This document shows positions 5,701-58,228 of a stretch of 64,000 nt of DNA, in pieces. The stretch is taken from positions 17,388 to 81,387 of IMG/VR virus record IMGVR_UViG_3300036827_000193; one strand, 5' to 3'. Position numbers and translations under genes: made by a program. The DNA comes from a virus. The notes beneath the pieces are model-generated. The model had not been told where the DNA came from, searched no databases, and worked only from the letters and a program-made list of their open reading frames with translations. Each line of letters opens with the position of its first letter. Positions within the stretch are counted from its first letter, which is position 1.

Positions 5701-8700
5701 CTTGTTCTGGACCGCCTCGTGGGCGGCGTAGAGGTATTTCGCCGCCGTAACCGGATCGAAGCGGCGCAGCGCTGCGCGTGCTGACGGTGTCAGTTCGGCG
5801 CGCGCGACATGGCCGCCATGGCCGTGCGCCCAGACCGCATGCAGGCCGGGCAGTCCGAGAAACCCGATATCGGGGCCGCTCAAGGTGCCATCGCGCGGGT
5901 GATTGTGGTGGATGACGATCGCGTTACGCGGATCGCTCGCGATCGCGAAGAGCTTGAGGTCTTGACCGGTGTTGCCAGGACCGCCGCGGGTGTGCGCCAC
6001 GACCTTGCCGTTCTGGTCGACCGCGACAAGATGTTCCAAGCCGGTAGCGATGCCCTGCCTGAGGACGTGGCGCTGTGCCCAGTCGCCGGCGAGCATGTGC
6101 TGGGGGATGGCGATCGGGCCGAGATCGTGCGCCGTGACCTTTGCGGGCTTGGTCTCGCCGGGCTGGAACAGGGCGAAGCCCTGCCCGGTTGCGGCCTGGC
6201 GCAGCGCTGGGGCGATGTCCAGGGTGTGGACGGTGTGCCCCGGATATTTGCTTTTATCCTGCTCCAGAACCAACCCGCGACTTAGATCATTTTGGAAATC
6301 GGCCGGTACTGTTGGCAATTTCCCTTGCCCGACTTTGCCGCCGTACTTCTTGACCAGCTTGTTCGCGGTCTTGGGCAGGATGTCGTCGTAGAAGCCGCGC
6401 ATGCCTTCGCCGCCGACCTTGAGGTCGAGGCCCGAGAGCGTCCTTCGGCCTTTGTCGGTGCCATAAAATCCCGAAGGCTTGCCCTCGCCGGCAGCGATGC
6501 GCGCCGCAACGTCCTTGCCGACGTGGTCGGGCAAGTCCTTTTCCGGAACGCCTTCTGCAATGCGGGTGTTGTCACTACGGCCCTTGAGACGAGCATCGAT
6601 CGTGTAGTGTCCGTCCGCGCCCTTGATGTAGTGCAGGTCGTCGATCTGCTTGCTCAGGTCGTAGCGATCCGCCTGCACATCTCCCGGCGTCCATGCAATC
6701 TTGTCGTAGCCGTGCTCTGCGGCGTAGCGGATGATCCGCTTCAGCGAGAGTTCGGGCCATGTGGTTTTGAACGGGGCGTCGGGGACGCGGGTTCCTTGTT
6801 CGTAGTCCCCATGGATTTTTGCGGAGCGCTGATAATTGTCGACAGCCTCTGCCCGCGCCACGTCTACCGTGTCGCCCCAGCCGGGCCGCTCCGAGCCGTC
6901 CGGCAATGCGAACCAGTGCTTGCCATGATCGCCGTCGGTGCGCACAAACTTGAAATCGCTGTCCGTAAACAGTTTTTGCGGCGGCTGCTTGTAGCCCTTT
7001 TTCTTCCCCGCCTGGTGCCAGTCGCTCTGCACTTCCTCGATGAACAGCGTTTTCTTGCCGTCGATGGTGCGGTCGTTGAAACGGATGTGGGCGAGGACGT
7101 TGGGCTCGTCGAAGTGGGGGGAACGGAAATCTTGATTGGCGGAAGGGGGGCGGTATTCGCGGTCAAACTGCGCGTACCTCTCACGCTCAGCGGGGGACAT
7201 GGCAGCCAGCGTATCATCAGTGCCGGTCGTGCCGTATTTACGGCGCATCTCCATCTCGAAGTCATGCCACGCATCGACTTGCGCGTTGCGCGACGCTTCT
7301 TCACCCGGCAACTTCTCCGGCAGCGTCAGCAGCAGCTCGCGGTAGTTCTCGCCGCCCGGCAGTGTGTACTGCCTGTATTGCGTACCGCCGATGTCGCCAC
7401 CGATTTCTCGCGCAAGATCGGCAACCGCGCCCTCAAAGGACTCGTGATCGCCAAGCATGGTGCCGCGGACAAACGCGGCGTATCCGGTCAGCTCTCCGTT
7501 CTTGTCGTGATAAACATCGATGCCCGTCCCCGTCGACCGGCCAGGCAAGGTCAGTTGCGTGGTCGTCCCGCCTTCATCGTTTTCGACTGGCTCGCCTTGT
7601 GTCCAGTCCTCGATGTCTGACGGCGGTTGCGCGTCGCTTTTCTCCACTTCGCGCACTTCGACCTGATGCGCGCGGACGTAATCGTGCACTTCGGCTTTCG
7701 TCACCGCGCCCTTGTGCTCGCGTAGCCAGTGCTCAAGGCCGAGCCATTCGATCTCCTCGGGCTTGACGCCCGGCGCATTCCTGATGGTGCCGAGCCAATG
7801 GTTCGGCGCCGCCTTGTCCTGCTTGACCGCGGCGACGGCGCGCTCCACTGCGGAGTAGAAGGCTGGCGCATGGCCGAAGGCGTCTTCGCTCTCGGCCAAG
7901 GCAAAGCCGTGTCCCGCCGGTCGCGCCTCTATCGTCTCGAACAAGTGGTCATAGGCCGCTCGGATGCCTTGGTCCCGCATCTCGTCGGCGGTTGGATAAG
8001 CACCACCGGCCGTGTCGATGTTGGCAAGGTAGTCGTTGGCTGCGCCTTTGTCGGCAAGCCGATCGACAATATATCGTTCAAATGAACGGGCGGCCTTCTC
8101 GATGGTCGTGTTCCAGTACGGCTTGGCACGAACCTTGTCGAATTTCGCCGCGCGATCCGCAAAGCCGCCTTTTTGCAGACTGGCCTCGACATTCTTCCAC
8201 GCTTGATAGACCTCGTGACGAACCGGGCCACCGTCGCGGCGGCGCTCGCTGATGTATCCGCTGGCCTGATCCTGCCGCGCGAAGTAGTTATCGAGCGCGT
8301 GCAGCCATTCGTGCGCGAGGGAGCCAGGGCCGCCGCCCTTTGTCAGATTGATGACGACTTGGCCCGGCTCGTAGTGGGCCGATGCCGCATCGCGTCCGCC
8401 ATGGCCGCGAGCGCCGAAGGCAAGCCCGAGCTCGCCGTTCAACGACAATGCCTGGGGCGGAACGCCGACGACATCGGCAAGGTCCATCAGCGCGTCAAAG
8501 GCGCGGTTAAGGTCGGCTTGTCGGCGTTGCCCTTCGACATAATTGCCGAACTGAACCCCGCGGAAGCCGAACGCGCCTGAGAACATTTCCGGGGTGACGT
8601 CGCCCTCGCGCAAGGCCTCGCCGCTGCGCGGTCGGTTTTCCGTGCCGCGCATGTTCGGACCCTTGCGCAGTGCGTCGATGGCCGCCTGCAGGTCGTCCCG

Positions 8701-11700
8701 GTTCTCTTGCAGATATTCTCGCGCAGCCTGCGGTGTTTCAAAGCCGGCCTTCAGCCTTATGACCGTGCTGCGTACCTTAAAACCGAGGAATGCGCCCTTG
8801 GTCTCTCGATCGCGATAAATGCCGACATCGGTATATTTGGACCGCTCCCCGGCCCCCTCGGTGGGCTTTTCTGCCAGGTCGTGAGCGATGATCTTTTTCG
8901 CCAGCGCAACCGCGTCCTCTGGATTGTCGCGATAGGTATACGGGTTGGCGGGGTCGTTACTAAATGGATCGCGCGCGCTGCGACGGTCTGGTGATTCCAA
9001 AAACCAGAACGACTTGGATGGCGAATATCGCTGTCCGTTGAGTATCGAATAGTGACCGGAGTTGACCCGGTAACGCGCGGCCCTTGGCAGATCGGCCGGC
9101 GCAATGTCCTCGATCGCTTTCGCCGTCAGCGGCAGAGTTTGCAGTGCGTAGTTTCCACGCGCTGCCTGCTCAAGCTTGGCGACATCGATCTCGCCGTCCA
9201 GGAGCTGGCGAGCGAAGGTGCGCAGCGTCTCCACCTGTTCAGCCCACCGTTTCGCCTTCCCGGCGACCCGCGGCCGGTTCGGGATCATGTCGCGCATGAT
9301 GGCGATGTGCGAAAGCACGCGCGCGTCGACACCGGCGGCGGCCAGCTTTTCGTAGTCTGGCTGCGGAAACGATTTTGACAGCGGCACCGCTGCGACATCG
9401 AACTTCTCGCGCAGCGAATCGCGAAAGCCCGCAAATGTTTCCTTGCGTGCGCCGCCGATCTTCTCGCCGAAATCCTCGACCTTGGCGACCTTCTCAGGGG
9501 CCGATGTTCTTGTTTCCGATTTGGCGCCGGGCGCGGAATCAGAAGGCCCGGCTGCCCGGGCCTGTGCTGCTTCCGTGTCTGCTGGTTTGTCCGCGGGCTC
9601 GGGCGGTTGCGATGTCAAAACGGGTGGCAGCGCCTTGGCGGGCTTTCGCGCCAGGTCGACAAGATCGGTTTGTTTGCTCTCATCGCCGAACAGCCCTTCA
9701 TCCGCCGGCTTCTGTACTGCCTTCGGCTTCAGGCTTCGGTCGGCGGCTCGCTGGGCGCGCTCGGCGTCTGAGATTTGCTCGGCACCAGGGAGGACGTGCT
9801 GCTGTCCTGCGGCTGTTCGCTCTGTGACAGGTTGAGTTCGTTCACCTGATCGCTTTCCGCCTTGGGCGCGTACTTCTCCGCGTCCCGGTCCTGCGCTCGC
9901 GCCAGCGCCAGATGCAACCCCGCCAGCTTGTGCGCGCTGTGCCGCTTCTTCAACGGCAGGTTCGGTGCGCTCTGGCGCAGGCTTTTCGCCATGCCTCGGT
10001 GGGTGTCGCTCGTCAAGCGCATTGAACACTTCCTCTCCGGCAAGGATACCCTCGACTTTGTCCCGGTGCAATTCATCCGCGATCATGTCCTCATCGCGGG
10101 CATATTGCATGATGACCGATTCGAGGGCGTCCAGCGGGTCCTCGCCGCGGTCGAGCATCCGCTCCATAGCGTCAAACCGCAGCGCCTCTGGCACACTATC
10201 GAGTGGGATTTTCTGTTCTTTCAGCGCGGCATCGAAGATCGGGCGCTGGGTTTCGATCTCTTGCTTGCGCCGTGCGTTGTCCTGCCGGACGCTGGTGCCT
10301 TGGGCGCGAAGTTTTTCTTCCGTGGTCTTGTAGGTCGGCCAAGGCGACCCGCGTCCCTCGTCGCGCATCCTTTGTGCGCGGGCGCGATAGGCCTCCTGAT
10401 TCGCGATCATGCCGCCAAATGGCTTGCCGCCGCTTACGGCATCTTTGGCAGCCCGGGCAGGCTTGTGTTCAACAGCGGCTTCGGCGCCGCCGCCAGTCCG
10501 CCCGTCATCGGCTTCGGCAGTGCGTTCCCCGCCGGCGGTGTCACCCCCAGCGCCGGCCCCTGTCGCGGGATGACCGGTTGCGGCGGCTTGAGGCTCGCGC
10601 CCGGTGCCTTCACCGCGAGCGGGCTCTTGGGGCCGAGCAGGTTCTTCAGGCCGTGCAGCTTCAACGCCGCCTTGATCGACAGCTTGCGCGCCCGCGGCAG
10701 TCGCCCGATCAGTTGTGGCGCCTGATGCCGCAGCGCCCAGCCCGCGTTCAGACCCGTCGCGGGCTTCCAGTAGCTCGGTTGTTGCTTCATCGCCGATGTC
10801 CTTCGCGATCTCGTCGCGGCTCATGTGACCGTCTTCGACCAGCGAGCGCACCACGGCCGTGGTGAAGGCATCATCCGGTGGCGCGCCTTCGTTGGCGTGG
10901 ATCTCGGCGGCGCGAACTATATCGGCTGGCCGTACGGTGTCCGGGTCGACGCCGGCGGCGCGCAGCGTGTCCTCGATGGCCTGGTGGTGCTCGGGGCCCG
11001 CTTCGGGGGCGGCTCCAGCCCGTTCGCCGGAAATTGGAGTAGTCTTGGCGGTGGGTTCCGGCTCCGCCCTTACATTATTAGTAGGCGAGCCATGCGCGGT
11101 TCCCGCTTCGGTCCCGGCCGCTTGCATGGCGGGTGCGGTTTCCGGCGGGGTTTCCGGCGGGTTTTCCGCCGCCATCGCCTCGGAGGCCGCAGCCTTGGTG
11201 TTGCCGGTCTTGAGCCAGTCCTTGAACTCGCCGACCGGCATCGCCCGCATGCCGCCGATGTGCTGGGGCTTCTTCGAGCTGGTGCCGAGATAGGCCTGGA
11301 TGGCTTCGGAGGGGCCATCGAACCCGATCATCGCCTTGTGCTGGCGGAACGCGCCGGTCGCCTCGTCCTTCTCGTCGAGCACATAGACGGTCGGACGCTG
11401 CGGGTTTGGTCCCATGAAGACGTCGACGTGCATGCCGTCGGCGCCTTCGGTGCCTTTTACATAGCCATAAGGTACCGAGTGGGTGGTCTGCCACGCCTCA
11501 CCGGTTTCCGGATTGGTACCGCGGCGCACGCCGCCGGCCGGCGCCTCGATCGTGATGTCGAGACCGTTCCAGCGCATGTGGCCGCGTTGGACATTGTTGG
11601 CTTCACCTTGCTCCGGTGAGTGATCCTGGTCGGCGACGGATGCGGCGCGCGCGACGTCATCGGCGGTCTTGACCTCGACCGGCGCCTCGCGCGTGCCTTC

Positions 11701-13539
11701 CTGCGGCGCTTCGGCGCCGGCATGCACGCCGTTCTTCAACGCCTCATCGACCGCGTCGGCCTTCTCATCCGGCTTCATGCCGGCGACGTCGTCCTTGGAG
11801 TAGCCGTAGCGGCGCAGCACCTCGTCATCGTCGGCGCGCTGTGAGCCGTAGCCGAACTTGGTGTTGACGTAATCCTTGAGGTCGTCGTCGTTCCACGAGC
11901 GGATCGTGTCGCGATCGAATTCCTTGTAGTAGGCCGCGGCCTCCTCGAGCTTGAAGCGCGCGCGCGCGCCCATCTTGGTCTCGAACGGTTGCGGTTTTTC
12001 GCCCGGCTGCTGTTGCTGCGCGCCGGATCCCGGCGCTGATCCCGAACCGCCGCCGGTTTGCTGCTGTTGGTCACCGCCCGCCTGATGGTCCCACTCCCCA
12101 TTCATCGGGTTGTAGTACCAGCGCCCCCCGGCGGCATCGTCGCGATACCACGTGCCATTGAAGCCGCGGCCGCTGGTGCCCCATTGGTAATCGGGATCGT
12201 AGGGATCATCGCGGCGTGGCGACCCGGTCGGGCGCGCGCCCGCGCCGGCAGCACCGGCGCCGCCGGGCGATTCACCCGGGCGAGGACCGCCGCCCGAACC
12301 CGCTGCCGCGCCAGGCGCTTCGCTTCCCGGCAGTGCGCCCGACACCGCGGCTGCCGGCTGATCCGCTGTGGCGGCCGGCTCGGCGGCATTGCGATTGCCG
12401 AATGTCGAAAGCCCGTGCGTGCCGCCACCGACCGCGAGACCGGTGATGTAGCTCGCCAGCATGCGCTTGAAGTCGGGCGTGTAGGCCGCGTTCTTGTCGT
12501 AGTAGGCCGCGGCGATCTTCTGGTTGAGGTAGTCCTGCGCCTCGCCGATGCCGGTAAAGACGACACCGTCACGCAGCGCGTGTTCGAGGGTTGCCGCTGC
12601 CCAGCCGGCGAGGCCAGGTGCAACCTGCTTGACCGGCGCGAGCACGGAGCCGAGCGGGATCATGCCGAGGCCGCCGCCGACAAGCCCGGAGAGCCCGGCC
12701 GCCTTCGCGGCATCGTCGTCGCTCGCGCCCTTTTGCTTGGCGGCGTCGAAAGTTTCCCCCGCAGACGACAGCCCCATGCCGAGTCCGCCCATGGCGAGAC
12801 CGGTGAGCGGGCCGGCTGCGAGACCGCCAGCGACGTACGGCGCTATGCCGCCGATGCCACCCGCCACCTTGCTGGTGAGCGTTTCCTTCTCGGCTGGCGA
12901 CAGCGGCGCGGCTGCCTCGCCGAATTGCTTGACCGATCGTCCGGCCCGGTAGAGCGCGTTGTCCTCGATCGGCGTGGCGCCGACGGTTGCGGTGCCGGTG
13001 ATGTCGCCGCTGTTGGGGTCGACGGTGTCCTGAATATCGGACGGAGCGGTGTTGCCCGATGCTCCGGTGACGGCACGGCCAAGCCGGTCAAGGCCGACGG
13101 CTGCGCCCTGCATGATATCGCCGGTCTGCCCGGTGATGCCCTGCACCGCCGATTTTGCCGCGACGCCAGGCAACGACGACCACGGCACATCCTCGGGCTT
13201 TGCAGCTTTCGCCGACTGGCCGCCGACCGTCGCGGTGCCGGTGATCGGCGGCTCGTCGCTTGGTGCTTCGCCGTACTGCGAGAAGTCGATGGCCGGCGCC
13301 TTGTCGACTTCATCCTGCGTCTTGCCGAACGCGCCGAAATCGGGCTGCGCCTTCTGCGCATCCTGGTGCTGCTGCAGTTGCTGCTGCTGGCGCTTATCGA
13401 GTGTCTTGCGGATGAGGCGGTTGAGCACCGCCTGCGGGTCGACGGCATTGTTCTGGACAAGCTCGGGCGCGCGCTCGGTGATGAGATCGTTGACGATGCC
13501 TTGCGGGTCGACCGCCCCAAGCGCGTCGGCGAGGCTCAT
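2701..13539 (-). CDS. Giant polyvalent ejection/internal virion protein (3612 aa): inorganic-pyrophosphatase-like, LPD5-like, LPD1-like (HExxH) and JAB/MPN-like domains
   Basis: Motifs GLDITIE..PYGYVKGTEGADGMHVDVFMGP (~11200-11600), EDFGEKIGGARK (~9440-9480), FRGVQFGN..SLAHEWLHALD (~7950-8600), FIEEVQSDWHQ..VPDAPFK (~6750-7100), EHLVAVD..HHNHP..LSGPD (~5860-6040); last of three ejection genes. Confidence 0.9.
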   Translation of the reverse strand: MSLADALGAVDPQGIVNDLITERAPELVQNNAVDPQAVLNRLIRKTLDKRQQQQLQQHQDAQKAQPDFGAFGKTQDEVDKAPAIDFSQYGEAPSDEPPITGTATVGGQSAKAAKPEDVPWSSLPGVAAKSAVQGITGQTGDIMQGAAVGLDRLGRAVTGASGNTAPSDIQDTVDPNSGDITGTATVGATPIEDNALYRAGRSVKQFGEAAAPLSPAEKETLTSKVAGGIGGIAPYVAGGLAAGPLTGLAMGGLGMGLSSAGETFDAAKQKGASDDDAAKAAGLSGLVGGGLGMIPLGSVLAPVKQVAPGLAGWAAATLEHALRDGVVFTGIGEAQDYLNQKIAAAYYDKNAAYTPDFKRMLASYITGLAVGGGTHGLSTFGNRNAAEPAATADQPAAAVSGALPGSEAPGAAAGSGGGPRPGESPGGAGAAGAGARPTGSPRRDDPYDPDYQWGTSGRGFNGTWYRDDAAGGRWYYNPMNGEWDHQAGGDQQQQTGGGSGSAPGSGAQQQQPGEKPQPFETKMGARARFKLEEAAAYYKEFDRDTIRSWNDDDLKDYVNTKFGYGSQRADDDEVLRRYGYSKDDVAGMKPDEKADAVDEALKNGVHAGAEAPQEGTREAPVEVKTADDVARAASVADQDHSPEQGEANNVQRGHMRWNGLDITIEAPAGGVRRGTNPETGEAWQTTHSVPYGYVKGTEGADGMHVDVFMGPNPQRPTVYVLDEKDEATGAFRQHKAMIGFDGPSEAIQAYLGTSSKKPQHIGGMRAMPVGEFKDWLKTGNTKAAASEAMAAENPPETPPETAPAMQAAGTEAGTAHGSPTNNVRAEPEPTAKTTPISGERAGAAPEAGPEHHQAIEDTLRAAGVDPDTVRPADIVRAAEIHANEGAPPDDAFTTAVVRSLVEDGHMSRDEIAKDIGDEATTELLEARDGSERGLGAAASGATTDRATAAGAQAVDQGGVEAARPEEPARPQEPARGEGTGREPQAAATGHPATGAGAGGDTAGGERTAEADDGRTGGGAEAAVEHKPARAAKDAVSGGKPFGGMIANQEAYRARAQRMRDEGRGSPWPTYKTTEEKLRAQGTSVRQDNARRKQEIETQRPIFDAALKEQKIPLDSVPEALRFDAMERMLDRGEDPLDALESVIMQYARDEDMIADELHRDKVEGILAGEEVFNALDERHPPRHGEKPAPERTEPAVEEAAQRAQAGGVASGAGASAGPGRGEVRAQGGKRSGERTQPVTERTAAGQQHVLPGAEQISDAERAQRAADRSLKPKAVQKPADEGLFGDESKQTDLVDLARKPAKALPPVLTSQPPEPADKPADTEAAQARAAGPSDSAPGAKSETRTSAPEKVAKVEDFGEKIGGARKETFAGFRDSLREKFDVAAVPLSKSFPQPDYEKLAAAGVDARVLSHIAIMRDMIPNRPRVAGKAKRWAEQVETLRTFARQLLDGEIDVAKLEQAARGNYALQTLPLTAKAIEDIAPADLPRAARYRVNSGHYSILNGQRYSPSKSFWFLESPDRRSARDPFSNDPANPYTYRDNPEDAVALAKKIIAHDLAEKPTEGAGERSKYTDVGIYRDRETKGAFLGFKVRSTVIRLKAGFETPQAAREYLQENRDDLQAAIDALRKGPNMRGTENRPRSGEALREGDVTPEMFSGAFGFRGVQFGNYVEGQRRQADLNRAFDALMDLADVVGVPPQALSLNGELGLAFGARGHGGRDAASAHYEPGQVVINLTKGGGPGSLAHEWLHALDNYFARQDQASGYISERRRDGGPVRHEVYQAWKNVEASLQKGGFADRAAKFDKVRAKPYWNTTIEKAARSFERYIVDRLADKGAANDYLANIDTAGGAYPTADEMRDQGIRAAYDHLFETIEARPAGHGFALAESEDAFGHAPAFYSAVERAVAAVKQDKAAPNHWLGTIRNAPGVKPEEIEWLGLEHWLREHKGAVTKAEVHDYVRAHQVEVREVEKSDAQPPSDIEDWTQGEPVENDEGGTTTQLTLPGRSTGTGIDVYHDKNGELTGYAAFVRGTMLGDHESFEGAVADLAREIGGDIGGTQYRQYTLPGGENYRELLLTLPEKLPGEEASRNAQVDAWHDFEMEMRRKYGTTGTDDTLAAMSPAERERYAQFDREYRPPSANQDFRSPHFDEPNVLAHIRFNDRTIDGKKTLFIEEVQSDWHQAGKKKGYKQPPQKLFTDSDFKFVRTDGDHGKHWFALPDGSERPGWGDTVDVARAEAVDNYQRSAKIHGDYEQGTRVPDAPFKTTWPELSLKRIIRYAAEHGYDKIAWTPGDVQADRYDLSKQIDDLHYIKGADGHYTIDARLKGRSDNTRIAEGVPEKDLPDHVGKDVAARIAAGEGKPSGFYGTDKGRRTLSGLDLKVGGEGMRGFYDDILPKTANKLVKKYGGKVGQGKLPTVPADFQNDLSRGLVLEQDKSKYPGHTVHTLDIAPALRQAATGQGFALFQPGETKPAKVTAHDLGPIAIPQHMLAGDWAQRHVLRQGIATGLEHLVAVDQNGKVVAHTRGGPGNTGQDLKLFAIASDPRNAIVIHHNHPRDGTLSGPDIGFLGLPGLHAVWAHGHGGHVARAELTPSARAALRRFDPVTAAKYLYAAHEAVQNKLYDIINTALLSGRIDRDTANALLPHAVAVALHRAGIIDYRSNSTFGDDIEKLGLGAYIELAAHAARGTVHGPDELPDDRSAGSLRHAGDLGASFARTAEVAAGHVAAPGHDRVGGADDRAQAARAAHGVGLGDAELAGTELAGTGLAEEGRHYTLGAMGDPIRTIKVFKDFWTSAFQPELVSDRALEADPLFARYKARQAQEKDAVVRQSESQWNYWNKRGDAERIRFLDDVESNNTPADATQADMARRYRRILDANWAEEQRYGSRAAFVDDYFPHIWEQPDEWRAFSETRSAQVGPTWFQKKRTYDYISEGLAAGLKLRFTNPVDIVVHRLLSGVDMRQRMELLYQLKDMGLAWEGKQGGEQLVRRGWRAINAPDRQQWVIVPDVQKLWQNGVEAKGLWQAEHVGGSMFRGWMALKNAWVPIKLALSAFHPLHVLHIDQANSLARAWDDLAKGHDLPAALKAAAEGVGTIPTLGMIHYRKGAKARAAWAKRPSQQTPQDKAVVALMTDGGFVPQLSEQLKIAARRQLAVAWRKVLRGEAGASDWRKAVSAAMRRPIEVLQAPLFEKWIPALKAAAYLDQAASLLKRRPGLLADDTNRRIALRAIAKSIDNRYGEMSYGTLFWNRTTKDAAIGSFLSLGWNLGFVREFGGATLEAGTRTAGLLPPFKPSAGRAVTRDATNKIPFVLAYVGTAALIAGIMTNLFTGKQPEGIDYVFPRAGGENPDGSPRRYTTMFYLREVPMLLKHVQERGGNWLSGAGEMLWNKLMFEPFHELLTNRDYYGYNIWDENAPIYQQVWQGVKHFFGDQTNPMSVSGAKHAAELSGKPFPSAAEAIRHPEQYLDALKAKGVGMSVLGFGPAPAYVEKSPIQNRISYLYREHVAPTSRPEEQAQGTEEKMAVRSAILIAKRDHDSKALQDAYQRGKALGLKPGYMQNVGVVPTDIYLFSRLPNEDQKAILLQASKDERNRYWPKAHQTVKNEVNRQVHLPAIPAGALPAGAM
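5313..5492 (-). CDS. Nested 59-aa ORF overprinted on the giant gene (alternate frame)
   Basis: GAGAGGGA SD 6 nt before ATG; protein-like helical sequence MAQTNFQMIDPPGAFDTLATWEHHLHELRKLP..; the host frame is a low-complexity linker here. Confidence 0.65.
   Translation of the reverse strand: MAQTNFQMIDPPGAFDTLATWEHHLHELRKLPQDTLLRQDMIASAEQMIERKRREPRTA
9729..10022 (-). CDS. Nested 97-aa ORF overprinted on the giant gene (alternate frame)
   Basis: GGAGAGG SD 9 nt before ATG; MRLTSDTHRGMAKSLRQSAPNLPLKKRHSAHKLAGLHLALARAQ.. Confidence 0.5.
   Translation of the reverse strand: MRLTSDTHRGMAKSLRQSAPNLPLKKRHSAHKLAGLHLALARAQDRDAEKYAPKAESDQVNELNLSQSEQPQDSSTSSLVPSKSQTPSAPSEPPTEA
10434..10790 (-). CDS. 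Nested 118-aa basic Pro/Leu/Lys-rich ORF overprinted on the giant gene
   Basis: AAGGA SD 8 nt before ATG; the host frame is an Ala/Gly/Arg linker with many A/T third positions. Confidence 0.4.
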   Translation of the reverse strand: MKQQPSYWKPATGLNAGWALRHQAPQLIGRLPRARKLSIKAALKLHGLKNLLGPKSPLAVKAPGASLKPPQPVIPRQGPALGVTPPAGNALPKPMTGGLAAAPKPLLNTSLPGLPKMP

Positions 13540-23629: not shown

Positions 23630-26323
23630 TTACGCCGCGCTGTCCCACATCACGACCCGCGAGTTGAGCGAGTCGGTGTGGACCAAACCAAAACCGCCGA
23701 GGTAATTGATTGTGTTCACCCGTCGTCGCTAACGACGGGCCGAGACGACCTTTTTGTAGGTCAACTCTGCTGGCTCTTTCGAACCAGTCCAGACCATATC
23801 TTCAGTGACGCAAGTTGCTTTTTTGCGTTACTGCTGGGGGCTTCGGTGCGCTTGCACCTACGAGCTTTCGCTCTGGTCGTTGAAGCTTCCTCTGCGTGAG
23901 AGGCTCGCCTGCTGATTATCCAATCTCAGAACTTTTCAGGCCGTCACGCCTGCGGTCGCCCGCTACGTTGTGGCGTTCTGAGCTTTAGGAACTTCCAGCA
24001 ATTCTCCCAGTTTTTACGCCTAGCATTATTCTCTACCAGGCGATGCCCCGGCTGCGACCGTAGTCGCCCGGGATCTTCGCGCGGACTTCCTCGGGTACGC
24101 ACACGGCTTCAGTGACCGTGTCACCGCCGCAGAAGAACGCCCAGGAAGACAGGCCATTCGTCCACGGTTGCGCAACGCCGCTCCACGGATCGTACGACGT
24201 GGCATTCGCCGCGCCGCCCTTGGGAACGAACGTCTGCTCGATGAAGCGGCAGGACTCGTACCTGCCGATTTCGCCGTTGAAGATGTGCGCGAGACCGGTC
24301 TCGGTGTACTGGTGGATGGTCTCGAGCGAATTCTTGAAGTTGCGATACGTGGTCGGATGCGACACCGCCACGTAGTCATCCGCCGTGAACGGCGGAATGT
24401 TTCGCTCCTTCATGGTGTCGACGATCGCCTTGACGTGCCCGGTACCGAGCGCGACGTTGTTCGTCACGGTTGCGGTGCCGTTGGTGTCGAGGTTGATGGC
24501 GGTCGTCGAAGTGCTGGAAGACGGCTCGGCGCGCAGCAGAGTGTTCTTGAACTGCAAGAACGACTCGATGTCGAAGTATTTGCGCGCGTCGTCCTTCAGC
24601 GTTTTGTCGATGATCGCGGCGACCTGATGCTTCGCCAGCGCGACCAGCTTGCCGGTGTAGGGAACGCTATTCCCAGCTTCAAAGCAGAATTGTTCTTTGC
24701 CGCGGCTCTTTATCCGCAGCCTCAACCGCTCGCGCGATTGCTCAGACTATCTCTTGCAGATTACTGTGATCTGCCCGGGCGCTCGTGGTCGGATTATTCT
24801 TTCGTCACCGACTAGTCGTTACGCCTTCCGCGCCCCTGGGGCTCTCGCCTTACATGCGCGACTTGGCTCGGGATTGTCTCTGAGAGAGGTTCCCCGAATT
24901 CACCCGGTGTTTCACCTTACGCGGCGAGCGCGAAGGTGCGGCCTGTGTTGACCGTAAGCTGGTGTTGCAGCATGACGAACCCGGTCTCCGGGATCGGGGC
25001 GCTTTCGTCCAGCCGGCGGCCTTGCGTGCCGAGGTTGGAATAAACGTCCCAGTTGAACTTGTCGCCGCGGTTGAGGCCTTTCTTGGTGCCATCCTCGGCG
25101 TCGCAGAGCTGCCGCATCTTGGTCAGCGGCTGCACCTGCTGGCGGAGCACGTCCGACAATTCGTCGGAGTACATGAATCCGCCCTCAGTGGGGACTGCCT
25201 TTTGTTCGCACGATCCCGTTTGTGGATCGTTCCTGCATCTTTCAATGCAGAGCAGACTATATCTTGAAATCTTCTGCCGGTATCCCACATACATCCCTAG
25301 CGGGGAAACACATGCGCATCACCAAATCACAACTCGTCGCCCTCTACGCAAAGAGGACTGACGATCAAATCGGCAAGCTGTTCGGCGTAACCGGCCATTC
25401 AGTTGGCGATTGGCGACGGCATTATGGCATCCAGCGCAAACCAAGAGAGACTTACAACAAGTATACCCTTGATCGCGATTTTTTCGCGAAGATTGACACC
25501 GAAGAGAAGGCGTACGCGCTCGGTCTTATAGCGTCCGATGGATGGGTGGCCCGATCTGGAAAGCAAGTGAGCCTTGCTCTTCAGGTTCGAGACCGGCACA
25601 TCCTTTATGATCTTCGACGCGCCCTGAAGTCGGATGCTCGTGTCTTCGACAAGGCGAGAGGCGGCTTTGCCGGCTCTGGCCCGCGGAAACAGATTACCTT
25701 CGACAGCAAGAAGCTGGTCGCCGATCTGGCGCGCTGGGGTGTCATCCCCGGAAAATCAGTCACCCTCCGCTACCCCCGTATTCCGAAACATCTTGAGTGC
25801 CATTTTGCGCGAGGACTTTTTGACGGGGATGGGCACATTCGCGCCCACCCGAAAAAGCTCTTTTATTTTCTTGGCACTTCCGACCTGATCGACGGACTAC
25901 GAAAGTCGATCATCCGACATACGGGCGCGGCGCTCGCCAAGTACGAGGCCGTGGGCTGTTGGCGGATTTCTGGATACGGTGGCAGCGTCGCGGTGCTGCG
26001 GTGGATGTATGAAGATGCGACGATCTGCCTTCGCAGGAAGCATCGCGTCTTCTTGAGGTACTGGAAGTGATGTCCTGGGCGCTCGTGGGACCGATTATCG
26101 TCGGGGTCTCACAGTCCTAGTCGTTGAACCTTCCGAGCTACAGTTTCCCCTGCTCGGCTTGGCTGCTGATCGGCCAATCCCTGATCTTTTCGCGCATTCA
26201 CGCTCGCCCTCTCGGGCCACGTTGTAGCGATCAAGGCTCTAAGGCTGTTCCAGCAATTCACCCAGTGCGCACTCTGAACTCGCATTCAGAGGGGGGCTAA
26301 GTTACCCACAATTGTCCTGCCAT
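23630..26323 (-). CDS. Major capsid protein (N4-gp56-like, ~330 aa) in four exons: 26323-~26305, ~25198-24951, 24684-24035, 23706-23630
   Basis: Spliced frame MAGQLW/AVPTEGGFMYSDELS..QLTV/FEAGNSVPYTGKL..GEIGRYESCRFIEQ..GRSRGIAW/YYLGGFGLVH..WDSAA; follows scaffold; AAGGA SD. Confidence 0.92.
23707..24034 (-). ncRNA. Group I intron 3 in the capsid gene (328 nt, no ORF, apparent terminal A)
   Basis: P1 cgcctggt/gctaggcg with U.G; P gaattgctggaa, Q aatcagcag, R ttcaacgacca, S aagatatggtc; P10 taat/atta. Confidence 0.9.
24685..24950 (-). ncRNA. Group I intron 2 in the capsid gene (266 nt, no ORF, canonical U|...G|)
   Basis: P1 cggt/gccg with U.G; P gaattcgggga, Q aatcccgag, R gtaacgacta, S aagagatagtc; removal restores the frame (gt|c ttt gaa gct). 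Confidence 0.93.
25199..26305 (-). ncRNA. Group I intron 1 in the capsid gene (~1.1 kb, homing endonuclease in the P8 region; boundaries uncertain by 1-2 nt)
   Basis: P gaattgctggaa, Q gatcagcag, R gttcaacgacta, P3 ctgggtg/cgcccag, S aagatatagtc, P9 ctgcat-tgaaag-atgcag. Confidence 0.9.
25312..26070 (+). CDS. Intron-encoded LAGLIDADG homing endonuclease with N-terminal HTH, antisense to its intron
   Basis: AYALGLIASDG and HFARGLFDGDG motifs; FFAKIDTEEKAY; GGGGA SD before ATG 25312. Confidence 0.9.
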   Translation: MRITKSQLVALYAKRTDDQIGKLFGVTGHSVGDWRRHYGIQRKPRETYNKYTLDRDFFAKIDTEEKAYALGLIASDGWVARSGKQVSLALQVRDRHILYDLRRALKSDARVFDKARGGFAGSGPRKQITFDSKKLVADLARWGVIPGKSVTLRYPRIPKHLECHFARGLFDGDGHIRAHPKKLFYFLGTSDLIDGLRKSIIRHTGAALAKYEAVGCWRISGYGGSVAVLRWMYEDATICLRRKHRVFLRYWK

Positions 26324-26357
26324 CTGACAGGGTCCTTTCTCATGAATGCCCGTGCCG

Positions 26358-33435: not shown

Positions 33436-34220
33436 CCACCCACGATCCGGATTTTTTCCAGCACCTTGTCGCTCTCGTGGATGGCGAGGATCGACATGCC
33501 GGCCGGGATGAAGCGATAGCCGGACAGGCGCTTCTTCACTTCCTCGGCACCGCACAGCGCAATCTCGGCAAAGATGATCGGGCGACAGCGCACGATGGTG
33601 GCGTAGGCGCCGTCAAGCGCCGCCGGTTCGGTGCCTTCGATGTCGAGCTTGAGAAGATCGAGCCGTGTCAGGTTCAGGCTGTCGATCGTGACTAGGCGGC
33701 AGGCCTCGTTGACGCCGAGCGGCTGGCCGATCGCGCCATTGAGATCGAACCGCAGCGACAGGCCGCCGAAGTTTGCGGGCTTTTCGTGGTCGAGCTTCAC
33801 AATCGGCGTTGTCCCGAGCACATCGGCAAGCGCCGCCATGGTGGCCTTGGCATTGAAGCAGTTGTTGAGCGCGATGTTGCCGGCGAGCGCATAGAACACC
33901 CGCTCCTGCGGCTCGAACGCCAGCACCGAGCCCCAGCCGGCCATGGCCTTGGCCCAGGCCAGCGTGTGGGTGCCGATATTGGCGCCGCCGTCGATGACGA
34001 CGACACCGTCGCCATAGGCCTCGCGATGTGCGACCAGCAGCCCGAACAGTTCTTCGATGTCGCCTTGTTCGTGGCTGCCGGTGCCGAGCAGGCTTGCGCC
34101 GACGCCGGCATAGCCACCCCCGGCGACCCGGCAATAGTCGAGTCGGTTCAGGATCATCGGGCCGTTTTCGGTCGCGGCCAGAACGAAGGCGACTTGCGGC
34201 AAATCGGGCTCCCCTCCCAA
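33432..34220 (-). CDS. FkbM-family methyltransferase
   Basis: VIDGGANIGTHT, VLAFEPQ, LDLLKLDIEGTE. Confidence 0.9.
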   Translation of the reverse strand: MGGEPDLPQVAFVLAATENGPMILNRLDYCRVAGGGYAGVGASLLGTGSHEQGDIEELFGLLVAHREAYGDGVVVIDGGANIGTHTLAWAKAMAGWGSVLAFEPQERVFYALAGNIALNNCFNAKATMAALADVLGTTPIVKLDHEKPANFGGLSLRFDLNGAIGQPLGVNEACRLVTIDSLNLTRLDLLKLDIEGTEPAALDGAYATIVRCRPIIFAEIALCGAEEVKKRLSGYRFIPAGMSILAIHESDKVLEKIRIVGG

Positions 34221-34786: not shown

Positions 34787-36319
34787 TCAGGCAGCGGCGC
34801 GCTGCGCCGCCATTGCGTCCAGATCACGCGTGACGTGATCGAGAACCGTCTGCCAGTCGCCCACCTTGGGCTGCCGGTAGAGTGTTGCGCGCGGGTACCA
34901 CGGCGAGTCGGTGCGCCCGAGTTGCCAGCGCCAATCGGTTGAATAGGCCGGGATCAGGATCCAGGTCGGCACGCCGAGCGTTGCGGCGAGGTGCGCGACC
35001 GCAGTGTCGACGGTGACGACCAGGTCGAGCGCGGCGATCGCGGCTGCGGTATCGCGCAGGTCGTCAAGCCACAGCGCACTCAGGAACGGATGACGCCGCT
35101 GCAGCGCCGCGAATTCATTGGTCTCGCCGGCGCGCATCTGCTGGATCGAGACGAAGTTCGCCTTGGCCTCGAAGATGGCGCCGAATTTGGCGAGCGGGAT
35201 CGAGCGATGGGCGTCGTTCTTGTGCTGGAAGTTGCCGGCCCAGCACACCCCGACATTCAATTCGTTCGCCGGCGGGTCGAGACTGGCGCGCAGGCGCGCA
35301 ACACGCTCCGGCTCGATCGAGGGCTGCCACGGCGGCGGCAGGTCCTGCTCGGTGTCAATGCCGAGATAAAGCGGCAGCGACATCAGCGCGGCCCAGCGCT
35401 CGAAGCCTTCGACCGTATCGCCGGCGGCAAGCTCCAGCACCGTGACGCCGGGGATATCGCGCACCAGCGGCGTGAGCTTGTCATGGACGCGCAGCAGCAC
35501 ATTACCGGCGCGCTCGCGGATCAGCGGCACGAAGCGCAGGAACTGGATGGTGTCGCCGAGCCCCTGCTCGGCGTGGATCAGGATGGTCTTGCCGGTCAGC
35601 GCCTCGCCCTGCCACTTCTTGTCGGCCGGCAGATTGAGGTTGGGCGTATCGTTCTCGCTGCTGGTCAGCCGCGCCTCGTAGTCGGCAAAGCCGCGCAGGT
35701 CGCCGAGCAGGAGCCGCGCCATGGCGCGGTTGTAGCGCGCGTCGGCCTCATTGAGCCGGCTGACGCTGTCGGTTGCCGGTGCGCGCAGTTCGAGCGAGTG
35801 ATCGAGCGAGGCGATTGCCTCGCGATGGCGATTGAGGCGCAACAGCGCGATGCCGCGGTTGTAGTGCGGAAACGGGTCGCTCGGATCGAACGCGATGCCC
35901 TTGTCGAGCGCAACGAGCGCCGCCTCGTGGCGGCCAAGCCGTTCCAGCGTGTTGCCGAGATTGTTGTAGATCAGCGCCTTGGCGGCCGGTGACAGCGGCG
36001 TCTTGGCGGTGTGGTGGGCGGCGCGCTCAAGGTCGGCAAGGCCTTCCTCGGGATGGCCGAGCTGCGCGACGCACAGTCCGTAATGGCTCAGCGCAATCGG
36101 ATTGCGGCGGTTGATCTTGCGCCCGCGCCAGAACCAGTACAGCGCCTCGTGCAGCTTGCCGGTCTCAAACAGCGAGGTGCCGAGCCGCTCGATGGCCTCG
36201 AAGTTCTCGGGCTCGTGCACCAGGACGCCGCGAAACATCGCCATCGCGCTGGGATGGTCGCCGGCCATGGCGTAGCCGGCGCCGAGGTCGAGCGCTTCGC
36301 CGATCGAGAGGTCGCTCAT
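34787..36319 (-). CDS. TPR-repeat glycosyltransferase (paralog of 32050-33435)
   Basis: TPRs, WQGEALTGKTILIHAEQGLGD, DTAAAIAALDLVVTVDTAVAHLAATLG, DWRW..DSPWYP; translationally coupled to portal. Confidence 0.9.
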   Translation of the reverse strand: MSDLSIGEALDLGAGYAMAGDHPSAMAMFRGVLVHEPENFEAIERLGTSLFETGKLHEALYWFWRGRKINRRNPIALSHYGLCVAQLGHPEEGLADLERAAHHTAKTPLSPAAKALIYNNLGNTLERLGRHEAALVALDKGIAFDPSDPFPHYNRGIALLRLNRHREAIASLDHSLELRAPATDSVSRLNEADARYNRAMARLLLGDLRGFADYEARLTSSENDTPNLNLPADKKWQGEALTGKTILIHAEQGLGDTIQFLRFVPLIRERAGNVLLRVHDKLTPLVRDIPGVTVLELAAGDTVEGFERWAALMSLPLYLGIDTEQDLPPPWQPSIEPERVARLRASLDPPANELNVGVCWAGNFQHKNDAHRSIPLAKFGAIFEAKANFVSIQQMRAGETNEFAALQRRHPFLSALWLDDLRDTAAAIAALDLVVTVDTAVAHLAATLGVPTWILIPAYSTDWRWQLGRTDSPWYPRATLYRQPKVGDWQTVLDHVTRDLDAMAAQRAAA

Positions 36320-38859
36320 GCGGCGCGCGGTCCCTGCTGCGGCAGCCGCACACCGGAGATGCGCCCGGTCTTGGGATCCCGCGTGAAGTCGAGCTTGCCG
36401 TCCGTGAGCAACTGCATCAGCGCCTCATGCGGAGCCGGTGCGGGAGGAGCGGCCGGCGCAGCAGCGGGAGGCGAGGACGCGGAGGGCGGACCGCTTGGAC
36501 CCGTGCCGGAAGGCGCACCCTGCGGGGACGCAGGCGCGGCATCTTCCATCTCCGCGCCCTCGCCAGCTTGTGCCGTGGTATCGTTGGCGAGATCGCGGCG
36601 GTGCTTGGCGATGGCGAGGCCATGCCGGTGGCCGTGCTCGAGCGCGGCGAGGTGGGTCTGGTTGGTGCGATGGCCGTGGTCGAACCCGGTGCGCTTGGCC
36701 TCGACCTGGTGGCCGAGCATGCGGTCGATGATGTCGGCCTCGAGCTCGCGCTTGCCGAGCGCGACCTTGGCGAGCGCGGCCATGCCAGTGAAGTAGGCGG
36801 CTTCGCCGGTGCGGTTGTCCTTGGCGATCTTGGCCTGCAATTCCTGCGTCTTGAGGTCGGCCATCGGGTTGGCGCGGGGTTGCCCGTTGTCCTTGAAGAA
36901 GCGCGCGCCGCCGTCCTTGTAGCCGGCCGCGCCGAACACCTCCTCGATCACCGCCTCGCTGTTGATTTCTTTCTGCCCGGACTGGAACTCGGGCGCCTGC
37001 GCCAATAGCGGCGCGACGATCTGCGCAGCGGCCTGGAACTTGGCCAGCCGCTGCTGCGGGTCGCCGGCGCCGAGGCCGGCGCTGACGCGAATGGTGATCT
37101 GCTGCTCCAGCAAGTCGTCGTCGATCTTGCTGATGCCGTGCTTCTCGAACAACTGCGCGCGCTGGCCGCACAGGCCGAGCACGACCGGGTCGCTCTCGTA
37201 GTATTGCTCGCAGCGCACGATCTGCGCCAGCGCCGGCTCGACCCAGGTCTCGATCCAGACCCGGATATCGAATTCCTGCACCGCATTGGCAGCGCCGGCG
37301 GCGAGTTTGAGGCCGCCCAGCGTCTTGCCGAGCGCGTTGTTGTTCTCGACATTGCCGTAGTTCTGCTGGCCGGCGAGGTCGTCGAATTCGAGATCGAGCT
37401 CGCGGCCCATCAGGATCGGCCCCTGGCCCAACTGCGGCGGTGTCTCCCACACCACGTCGTCCTTGTCGTCGACGAAGATCGAGGAGCCGGACGAGCGGCG
37501 CTTGACCTGGTCCATGTCGATGCGCCGGCCGCGCTTGACCTTCGAGATCGGCATGACGTTTTGCTTGACGGCGTCGAGCGTGAGATTGCGCAGGTCGTTG
37601 GTTTCGACCTGCAGCGGCTGCCAGGATTCCACCGCCGACATCGGAAAGATGCGGTGCGATTCGAGGTTGCCGTAGCCCAGCACCAAAGGGCGCTCGCCGT
37701 ACTGCTCGGGATAGACCTCGCGCGTCGGCTTGGGATCAGTGAGGTAATACTTGTCGCCGACCGACCAGAACGTCCAGTCCTCGCCCGCCACCCGCATGAA
37801 GGTCTCGTACACCCACACGATCTGGAATTCGGTGCCGGTCTGGGTCTCGTCGAGCCGGTCGAGCCCCATCTCGCGGGCGCGGCGGATCGCCTCCATGTCC
37901 TGCTTGCCGAGGTTTGCGGCCTGGCGCAGCGCCTGCTCGGAGACCTGCTTCCACGGATTGACCGGGGCGTCCTGCTTGCCGAGGATTTCCTCGACCGTCA
38001 TCGGGTATTTGAGGATGACGAAGGCGGCATTCTGCGCCGGGTTGAGCCAGTTGGCGGCTGAATCGATGACGAAGTTTTCCGGCGGGAACAGCACCATGTC
38101 GGGGCGGTCGACGTCGAGCGTGTAGACCTCGCGCACGCCCTTGACGAGAGCGCCGTTGCCGTCGTCGACATCGGCGTCTTCCTCGCCGGTCTTGCGATGC
38201 TCCTGCTTCCAGCACTGCTTGGAGAGGCAGATGCCGGTGAGCAGCGTGTCTTCGCGCGCGCCCATCGAGATCAGGAACCAGGGCAGCGACGCCTTGCCGC
38301 TGGTGCGGTCGGTGCGGTAGTTGACCAGTTCCTCCATCACACCGGCGGCGGCGCGCTGTTTCGGATCGGCCTCGTTGCCGGGCAGGCAATTGATGGCGTC
38401 GACGTTGTTGAACAGGCTTGCGGCAACGGCAGCGAGATCCTTGCGCACCGCGGCGCGCGTCTTGGGCACGAACAGCCGCGAGCGGCCGCGCCATTCGGGC
38501 CGGGTGTACTTGGACCCGACGTAGTGCTCGTTGTGAAAGGCGCGCAGCGACTGCGACCAGGCGCGGCGGTTGACCTGCGCCATGTAGAGCTGCGACTGCT
38601 GCTCGGCCTCGCGCACCAGGCGCAGGAATTCGATTCCCGGACCGGGCTGGCCGTCGTCAACGCCTTCGGGATTGGCGGCCTCGTAGGCCGCGGTGTTCTC
38701 CAGCTCCGGACCACTCTGGCCACCACCTTGGCCGCCAGCTTCGCGCGCGCGCTCGATCGCATCCTCGCCCGGGGGCTGGCCCGGGCCGGTGAACGAGATC
38801 GGCCGCGCCCGGGTGTTGGCGAGATCGTCCTCGCCGGGCGGATAAGTGCGGAGCGCCAT
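36316..38859 (-). CDS. Portal protein
   Basis: 847 aa; RSRLFVPKTR, PPENFVID, LQVETNDLRN, TLGG; lies between terL and scaffold. Confidence 0.9.
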   Translation of the reverse strand: MALRTYPPGEDDLANTRARPISFTGPGQPPGEDAIERAREAGGQGGGQSGPELENTAAYEAANPEGVDDGQPGPGIEFLRLVREAEQQSQLYMAQVNRRAWSQSLRAFHNEHYVGSKYTRPEWRGRSRLFVPKTRAAVRKDLAAVAASLFNNVDAINCLPGNEADPKQRAAAGVMEELVNYRTDRTSGKASLPWFLISMGAREDTLLTGICLSKQCWKQEHRKTGEEDADVDDGNGALVKGVREVYTLDVDRPDMVLFPPENFVIDSAANWLNPAQNAAFVILKYPMTVEEILGKQDAPVNPWKQVSEQALRQAANLGKQDMEAIRRAREMGLDRLDETQTGTEFQIVWVYETFMRVAGEDWTFWSVGDKYYLTDPKPTREVYPEQYGERPLVLGYGNLESHRIFPMSAVESWQPLQVETNDLRNLTLDAVKQNVMPISKVKRGRRIDMDQVKRRSSGSSIFVDDKDDVVWETPPQLGQGPILMGRELDLEFDDLAGQQNYGNVENNNALGKTLGGLKLAAGAANAVQEFDIRVWIETWVEPALAQIVRCEQYYESDPVVLGLCGQRAQLFEKHGISKIDDDLLEQQITIRVSAGLGAGDPQQRLAKFQAAAQIVAPLLAQAPEFQSGQKEINSEAVIEEVFGAAGYKDGGARFFKDNGQPRANPMADLKTQELQAKIAKDNRTGEAAYFTGMAALAKVALGKRELEADIIDRMLGHQVEAKRTGFDHGHRTNQTHLAALEHGHRHGLAIAKHRRDLANDTTAQAGEGAEMEDAAPASPQGAPSGTGPSGPPSASSPPAAAPAAPPAPAPHEALMQLLTDGKLDFTRDPKTGRISGVRLPQQGPRAA

Positions 38860-58152: not shown

Positions 58153-58228
58153 TGGAAGCGGGGGTAGGAATCGAACCTACGACCTTGTGGTTATGAGCCA
58201 CACGAGCTGACCGCTGCTCCACCCCGCA
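58153..58228 (-). tRNA. tRNA-Met(CAT), initiator-like, CCA encoded
   Basis: 76-nt cloverleaf tgcggggtggagcagcggtcagctcgtgtggctcataaccacaaggtcgtaggttcgattcctacccccgcttcca; 1:72 mismatch. Confidence 0.93.

Follow-up and report, generated by a model that had tools for sequence, protein, structure and literature searches.

We describe here an interrupted gene in a 64,000-nucleotide (nt) stretch of viral DNA, called the window below, which comprises bases 17388-81387 of the 81,387-bp IMG/VR virus record IMGVR_UViG_3300036827_000193. Positions 23630-26323 of this window very probably hold the only major capsid gene of an uncultured tailed phage of ~81 kb from soil, a gene that reads on the minus strand and is cut by three group I introns (numbered below in the order of transcription). 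This reading is built on the group I identity of the introns, the collinearity of the exons with intron-less homologues, conserved RNA structure, selection on the exons, and the retention of odd junctions in relatives. The arrangement is real but of an already known kind rather than a new kind of element, and two of its splice sites break textbook rules, both with published precedents.

The interrupted gene and its group I introns

The capsid gene lies inside a block of structural genes on the same strand and appears only as fragments in the list of open reading frames (ORFs). As the original prediction had stated, these fragments yield one frame of ~330 amino acids (aa) once three segments are removed, and its intron coordinates were right to within one base; exon 1, which it gave as six codons, does contain six codons but also one extra base. 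The features, mapped largely by tblastn with the 330-aa intron-less homologue P0007, are as follows in the order of transcription:

26333-26338, minus strand: Shine-Dalgarno-like AAAGGA, 9 nt 5' of the ATG (26323), read from the sequence
23630-26323, minus strand: whole interrupted major capsid gene, four exons and three introns (tblastn with P0007, spliced frame)
26305-26323, minus strand: exon 1, 19 nt, codons for MAGQLW and the first base of codon 7 (tblastn)
25198-26304, minus strand: intron 1, group I, 1107 nt (RF00028 match, homologous introns in L042 and L222)
25312-26070, plus strand: LAGLIDADG homing-endonuclease ORF, 252 aa, antisense to the capsid gene (Pfam, phrog)
24951-25197, minus strand: exon 2, 247 nt, residues 7-89 (tblastn)
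24685-24950, minus strand: intron 2, group I, 266 nt, no ORF (RF00028 match, 80% core identity to L208/L209)
24035-24684, minus strand: exon 3, 650 nt, residues 89-306 (tblastn, 91% identity)
23707-24034, minus strand: intron 3, group I, 328 nt, no ORF (RF00028 match, RNAalifold)
23630-23706, minus strand: exon 4, 74 nt plus TAA, residues 306-330 (tblastn)

In the tblastn alignment, residues 1-6 of P0007 fall on 26323-26306, residues 7-89 start from 25198, residues 90-305 fall on 24683-24036 and residues 307-330 on 23704-23633; the coding part of exon 4 is 23706-23633, followed by the stop codon TAA at 23632-23630. Joined together, the exons comprise 990 nt or 330 codons with zero stops, and the encoded protein matches the intron-less proteins P0002 and P0003 at 301 of 330 positions with zero gaps (91% identity), so that the alignment to intron-less homologues that had been suggested as a check returned exact collinearity across all three junctions. 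Compared with four intron-less genes, the joined exons have a ratio of nonsynonymous to synonymous substitution rates (dN/dS) of 0.07-0.15 at a dS of ~1, and the exons are thus under strong purifying selection. This extends to exon 4, which differs from its counterpart in the relative L288 at 25 of 75 nt (15 of them at third codon positions) and at 5 of 25 aa, a synonymous-rich divergence which argues that an exon 3' of an A-ending intron is still translated. No second capsid gene was found in the 81-kb record, where the own-genome search finds only these three pieces.

An Infernal search with the Rfam group I model RF00028 (gathering score 50 bits), likewise suggested beforehand, found matches on the minus strand in all three removed segments: 68.1 bits for intron 3 (E 2e-16, 23770-24106), 50.7 bits for intron 1 (E 3e-11, 25233-26313), and 42.4 bits for intron 2 (E 1e-8, 24723-24936). 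These matches are far beyond chance, all three introns align to the model over its full length (model positions 1-253), and the P7 strands and the GAUAU(A/G)GUC block of J8/7-P7 are found in each of them; the whole record contains no other RF00028 match. The core of intron 2 is 80% identical to introns of the relatives L208 and L209 that score 60-62 bits, and its homologues in L181, L208, L209, L290, and L324 together score 60-68 bits. In every intron, the reading frame runs into a stop early, 0-12 codons into the intron (TAG at 26299-26297 for intron 1, TAA at 24919-24917 for intron 2, and TAG at 24035-24033 for intron 3), which is common in such introns according to a 2014 review (PMC3984707). 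From these features, all three would be expected to self-splice.

In the mechanism that we propose, the capsid gene would be transcribed from the minus strand with the other structural genes, after which each intron ribozyme would fold and guanosine-initiated transesterification would excise the introns, so that the four joined exons form an mRNA that encodes a capsid protein of 330 aa with the HK97 fold. Intron 1 would be cut one base upstream of its U-G pair, intron 2 would be spliced canonically, and intron 3 would end in A. The introns would be selfish elements that are tolerated because they splice, not regulators, and intron 1 may be mobile now or have been so recently through the LAGLIDADG endonuclease encoded on its opposite strand. 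How efficiently such splicing might proceed is likewise a prediction made from the DNA.

Splice junctions of the three introns

A U before the 5' splice site and a terminal G are near-universal in group I introns (PMC4227781, PMC8146996). Intron 2 has these canonical ends, with U(-1) at 24951 and the terminal G at 24685; its P1 pairs CUUA-CGGU (24958-24951) with GCCG-CG-UAAG (24925-24916), and the core includes a P7.1/P7.2-like block at 24809-24778 and J8/7-P7 at 24755-24743.

P1 of intron 1 pairs GGGU (26307-26304) with GCCC (26297-26294), with the U-G pair closing the loop; the 5' strand of P7 lies within 26126-26116, J8/7 with the 3' strand of P7 at 25266-25253, and P9 at 25250-25233. The 3' half of this intron may resemble the td intron of phage T4 (subgroup IA2). 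Its last base is G25198, and the boundary can slide by one G to 26305-25199. The same architecture, with ...TGGGT, GCCC, and a terminal G that is immediately followed by the C of codon 7, is found in the window, in L042 (where the homologous intron scores 47 bits with RF00028), and in L222 (VFSW01516888.1, a 1075-nt contig), and in all three, cutting after U(-1) and using the homologous terminal G would shift the frame by one base. Among these three intron-1-bearing contigs, exon 1 (MAGQLW) and codons 7-14 show only synonymous differences, and AAAGGA precedes the capsid ATG in L042 and L222 as well. Because a cut one base 5' of the U is the only solution that keeps both the frame and the terminal G, we infer that the 5' exon of intron 1 ends in G26305 and that the intron begins with the U of the U-G pair. 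The ribozyme BcISt1 offers a precedent, since it splices after G as determined by reverse transcription polymerase chain reaction (RT-PCR), with the U-G pair shifted by one position next to the P1 loop (PMC4227781).

Several other candidates at this junction were rejected. An upstream ATG (26341-26343), 20 nt 5' of the capsid start, is in the frame that a U/G splice of intron 1 would use (MRKDPVRWQDNCG-SVPTEGG...), but we regard this as a coincidence because that frame lacks a start codon in L042 and L222 and because exon 1 changes synonymously when read as MAGQLW. A translation start inside intron 1 is contradicted by its lack of conservation and, in L222, by a stop two codons ahead of codon 7, internal initiation at Met15 is at odds with the selection on codons 7-14 in all three genes with intron 1, and ribosomal +1 frameshifting at UGG-G was judged unlikely.

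The LAGLIDADG ORF of intron 1 sits in a large insertion between the 5' strand of P7 and J8/7, which is the P8 region by the Rfam alignment. It matches Pfam LAGLIDADG_3 with 31 bits (cut-off 22.5) and the endonuclease family phrog_4645 with an E-value of 1.3e-45, and its translation shows two motifs, LGLIASDG and GLFDGDG. The gene is intact and its product may well be an active endonuclease. The homologous intron of L042 has an intact antisense ORF with 71% aa identity; in L222, the endonuclease ORF is decayed. No close solved structure was found for the 252-aa protein, and a scan for a sigma-70-like promoter of the antisense ORF found none, which is weak evidence either way.

In intron 3, P1 pairs GCCUGGU (24041-24035) with GCUAGGC (24024-24018) and fixes the 5' site after U24035, P10 pairs UAAU (24028-24025) with AUUA of the exon (23706-23703), P7 is GACCA/UGGUC (within 23882-23874 and 23803-23789), and P9 and P9.2 follow at 23787-23770 and 23739-23719. 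An RNAalifold consensus of this intron with those of L181 and L209 has 93 pairs, 26 of them with compensatory changes, and these include P1 (GCCUGGU/GCUAGGC vs GCUUGGU/GCCAAGC, with L181 covarying). At the other end, the capsid motif WYYLGG (once WFYLGG) is free of insertions in all 98 homologues that contain it, which places the 3' site at 23707|23706 and makes the last intron base an A. L181, L208, and L209 have a G at the aligned position. The intron of L288 also ends in A, at about 70% identity of its capsid protein and 61% identity of its intron core to those of the window; it shares the P7 (GACCA/UGGUC) and J7/9 (UGGA) states of the window intron, and P10 covaries between the two (UAAU/AUUA against GU/AC). 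A23707 is the consensus at a depth of ~25 in the probable source run with no variant reported there, and contigs of four soil runs contained neither a spliced form nor a variant at this position. The X4 joints among these contigs stem from diverged relatives and are weak. An intron that ends in A has been described before, in the hexacoral mitochondrial ND5-717 intron, whose exons are ligated exactly in vivo (PMC8146996, PMC6545197).

Intron sites, mobility, and alternative readings

Relatives were collected by pattern scans of IMG/VR and metagenome contigs. A generic core pattern was too unspecific (120+ matches), and a junction pattern gave 11 chance matches and one real one (L222) in metagenome contigs. 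A 19-mer search also matched loci with no capsid gene or RF00028 match, which were set aside (L206, L207, L210, and L230-L235). Intron positions in the capsid genes of relatives are:

L042: introns after codons 6 and 96
L181, L208, L209: introns after codons 93 and 305
L288: introns after codons 96 and 305
L290, L324: intron after codon 93 only
L253: introns after codons 55, 93, 186, and 191 (four introns, with a 15-nt mini-exon)

Across this handful of contigs, eight insertion sites are used (after codons 6, 55, 89, 93, 96, 186, 191, and 305) with up to four introns per capsid gene in relatives, and introns are absent from most of the 80 best IMG/VR loci. Both introns that lack an ORF in the window belong to lineages with HNH genes elsewhere: HNH ORFs lie antisense in the intron 2 family (L042 2149-2865 and L181 2659-3360, both minus strand) and in sense orientation in the intron 3 family (L208 and L288, plus strand), where the ORF runs through P9.2. 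Introns 2 and 3 of the window would thus be ORF-less versions of lineages that carry HNH genes in related phages. Judged from this distribution in sequenced relatives, the variable presence and position of the introns mark them as mobile selfish elements and not as a conserved regulatory device.

The richest case is L253 (IMGVR_UViG_3300021476_000058), a close relative with ~88% aa identity whose capsid gene (5507-7997, minus strand) is interrupted four times, after codon 55 (AACT|GG), G93, P186, and D191, so that a mini-exon encodes only PYTAD. The ends of all four introns are canonical, with a U ahead of the 5' site and a terminal G. RF00028 scores for three of them are 53-70 bits, and the one at G93, which contains a sense LAGLIDADG ORF, has no RF00028 match. 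In L222, a 42-nt insert (~868-909) follows GGT T in codon 14, a position also given as after codon 13. It begins after U, ends in G, and contains GACCGCC complementary to GGCGGUU of the upstream exon but has no catalytic core, and looks like a core-less mini-intron or a deletion remnant. Relatives of the intron 1/3 type also occur in a different phage gene of four IMG/VR loci (L328, L330, L333, and L334), where all end in G within the exon context ...GNREDLSN|AIYNIDPFDTP...; this host gene probably encodes another type of major capsid protein (MCP).

The intron 2 family, whose P7.1/P7.2-type motif was found in 100 IMG/VR stretches, keeps its guide GCCGC at three sites within 21 nt that each lie directly after CGGU: codon 89 in the window (24951-24958), codon 93 in L181, L208, L209 (3773-3781), L290, and L324, and codon 96 in L042 (2134-2144) and L288 (~135-145). 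Never more than one of these three positions is occupied per genome, and CGGT is found at the occupied position and at neither of the other two in the window and L042. L253 departs from this pattern with an unoccupied ACGGT at codon 89. The pattern would fit a guide-directed choice of site, either via reverse splicing, a pathway for which a 2014 review lists only circumstantial evidence from ribosomal DNA (rDNA) (PMC3984707), or via selection for spliceable insertions. That the family preserves a natural record of guide-directed (reverse-splicing-type) transposition, together with a capsid mRNA that relies on two rule-breaking splice sites, is a tentative idea that we hold to be possible but on balance doubtful. 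If it were true, the two rule-breaking sites would work well enough to supply the most abundant virion protein.

Some observations weigh against a capsid gene that is correctly spliced at all three introns. No RNA run that contains the sequence was found, the record itself is a metagenome assembly, and intron 2 on its own falls under the Rfam gathering score (42.4 vs 50 bits). In model systems, canonical ribozymes are slowed or blocked by a G at the end of the 5' exon and likewise by an intron that ends in A. The G-binding G-C pair in P7 of intron 3 looks ordinary, and the sequence gives no explanation for an accepted A. Two other junctions also keep the reading frame, namely U(-1) with a terminal C at intron 1 (giving Val at residue 7) and, at intron 3, the upstream G23719, which gives an in-frame product longer by 4 aa in the window, L288, and L181 alike.

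These points can be read to mean that the introns are real but that intron 1, intron 3, or both no longer splice correctly, leaving a dead or dying capsid gene in a defective phage or remnant. Such decay is suggested by the deviations at two otherwise near-universal positions and by the unchanged P7 G-binding pair of intron 3, and the relative L222 with its decayed endonuclease ORF and the extra 42-nt insert does look degenerate. We nevertheless consider it quite unlikely, given that the oddities are common to diverged relatives (three contigs for intron 1, L288 for intron 3), that substitutions in exon 1, codons 7-14, and exon 4 are mostly synonymous and dN/dS is as low as stated above, that the record contains no other copy of the gene, that the genotype is the consensus in the probable source sample with identical pieces in two other soil runs, and that both deviations have experimentally spliced precedents in the literature (PMC4227781; PMC8146996, PMC6545197). 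Splicing might instead use canonical nucleotides at alternative sites and produce a capsid protein that differs from its family, which for junction 3 would mean a 3' site after G23719 (W-LNTIN-YLGG, +4 aa) and for junction 1 either U26304 with G25209 (VEQK, +4 aa) or U26304 with the terminal C (Val7). The 12-nt tail before exon 4 is indeed in frame, free of stops, and preceded by G in the window (LNTIN), L288 (LNVFN), and L181 (LKISD). However, 0 of ~98 homologues have an insertion at WYYLGG, and the conserved UGA of this tail terminates the HNH ORF of the L288 and L208 introns, which explains its conservation without capsid coding and removes the argument for a tail that encodes capsid residues. 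P10 moreover pairs with AUUA/ACUA at the collinear site and covaries, and this site itself has a terminal G in L181, L208, and L209. At junction 1, the alternative G is not homologously placed in L042, the tails differ by a 1-nt indel, the L222 stop codon noted above interrupts the frame, and residue 7 is A, S, T, G, or N in the family but never V. Altogether, this makes alternative sites very unlikely.

That the insertions might have entered from other metagenome molecules as an assembly artefact or chimera is suggested by the nature of the record and by how common related introns are in the same habitats (the 100 stretches with one motif), but is hardly credible: one 42.7-kb contig of even depth (~25), from the probable source assembly and hence not independent, covers the stretch without differences, identical short contigs from two other soil runs cross intron-exon borders (e.g., 23714-24073 and 24609-24759), and the architecture of site 1 recurs in the independent assemblies L042 and L222. 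The original prediction had gone in another direction and proposed that three introns could tie capsid output to GTP, Mg2+, or temperature, which might in principle be added to their selfish nature. The one argument in its favour is that an abundant late protein would be gated by three ribozyme reactions in series, and we found it unsupported and rate it as unlikely, since close relatives vary freely (most lack introns, and the others have between one and four, at differing sites), the same lineages contain endonuclease genes or decayed remains of them, and the introns are distributed in the pattern of mobile selfish elements. The reading that we prefer remains a single capsid gene whose introns are removed at the collinear junctions.

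The phage and comparison with known systems

A search with exon 3 returned about 4000 homologues, mostly of 330 aa, many of which carry the JGI name "N4-gp56 family major capsid protein" and some of which come from Xanthobacteraceae metagenome-assembled genomes (MAGs). Exon 3 alone matches TIGR04387 (35 bits, E 9e-9) and PF13252 (E 0.0025), both under the curated cut-offs, and even the full-length, 91%-identical homologues P0002 and P0007 score only 44-45.5 bits (E ~1e-11) with TIGR04387, an equivalog model with a curated cut-off of 60 bits. The description as an N4-gp56-like capsid therefore holds in the sense of a relative of N4-gp56/HK97-fold capsids but not of a curated member of that family. 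The N4-like capsid notwithstanding, the phage is not shown to be N4-like on the genes that we inspected. The structural block around the capsid gene also holds the portal (36319-38859), the large terminase (47111-48958), tail proteins, and a 3612-aa ORF (2704-13539, minus strand), whose InPase, LPD5, and LPD1 domains identify it as a large polyvalent protein rather than a virion RNA polymerase of the N4 type. No tyrosine integrase was found in the 81-kb record, and the earlier suggestion to study junctions "after induction" had presumed a prophage. A tRNA-Met (58153-58228) was called by both ARAGORN and Rfam; an 89-nt tRNA-Pro (GGG) at 33876-33964 on the minus strand was called by ARAGORN with no Rfam report at the gathering score, and this long call may be spurious or unusual.

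Automatic annotation fragments the capsid gene, and capsid-based phage classification and completeness estimates will consequently miss or mis-size it; truncated family members are present in the protein database as 316-aa and 221-254-aa calls. Beyond this practical aspect, the capsid family of these soil phages is a dense arena of group I introns with endonuclease genes in sense or antisense orientation that could be mined for how introns change sites. The gene described here combines, within one essential mRNA, two rare, selection-tested splice-site variants with a canonical control intron, and it may be a convenient system for studying relaxed 5'-site choice and the recognition of the terminal nucleotide.

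Several group I introns in one phage gene have been seen before. Staphylococcus phage Twort, with a low-GC Gram-positive host, reportedly has three of them in its orf142. Phage capsid genes with group I introns are also published, e.g., in Tuc2009 and LittleE (PMC3706429), and the view in the original prediction that such introns are best described in DNA-metabolism genes overstated the rarity of the arrangement, since even several introns per capsid gene have been reported (PMC7886860). The nearest parallel in this respect is provided by crAss-like phages of the Delta and Zeta groups (Yutin et al. 2021, PMC7886860), in which several group I introns split a single MCP gene into up to five fragments, some introns carry endonuclease genes, and gene callers are defeated. 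Unlike these, the window comes from a soil phage with relatives in Xanthobacteraceae MAGs and with an N4-gp56-like capsid, and its introns are recognised by covariance-model cores with junctions mapped to the base, whereas those of crAss-like phages were recognised mainly by protein domains (PMC7886860).

A capsid-gene intron with an opposite-strand LAGLIDADG ORF is also present in mycobacteriophage LittleE, which infects a high-GC host (Pope et al. 2013, PMC3706429), and this intron is probably group I and was found to be spliced efficiently by RT-PCR. LittleE has a single such intron, whose ends are the canonical U and G, but the window has three, known from DNA alone, two of which have non-canonical junction bases. 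Introns of nuclear rDNA, too, can carry endonuclease genes in antisense orientation (PMC9548176). The predicted geometry of intron 1 is that of group B IStron ribozymes such as BcISt1 of Bacillus cereus (Tourasse et al. 2014, PMC4227781); IStrons encode IS607-type transposases and use AG sites of bacterial genomes for insertion. An IStron is a group I ribozyme fused to an IS607-family transposon with ORF A/B and AU-rich inverted repeats. The only ORF of intron 1 is an antisense LAGLIDADG gene, however, so that it is not an IStron, and the likeness lies in the 5'-splice-site geometry. Intron 3, finally, shares its last base A with hexacoral ND5-717, for which RNA-seq demonstrated exact ligation (PMC8146996, PMC6545197); that coral intron is a giant, passed on vertically in mitochondria and with genes inside its P8, whereas intron 3 belongs to a phage, spans 328 nt, contains no ORF, and has close relatives in L181, L208, and L209 that end in G.

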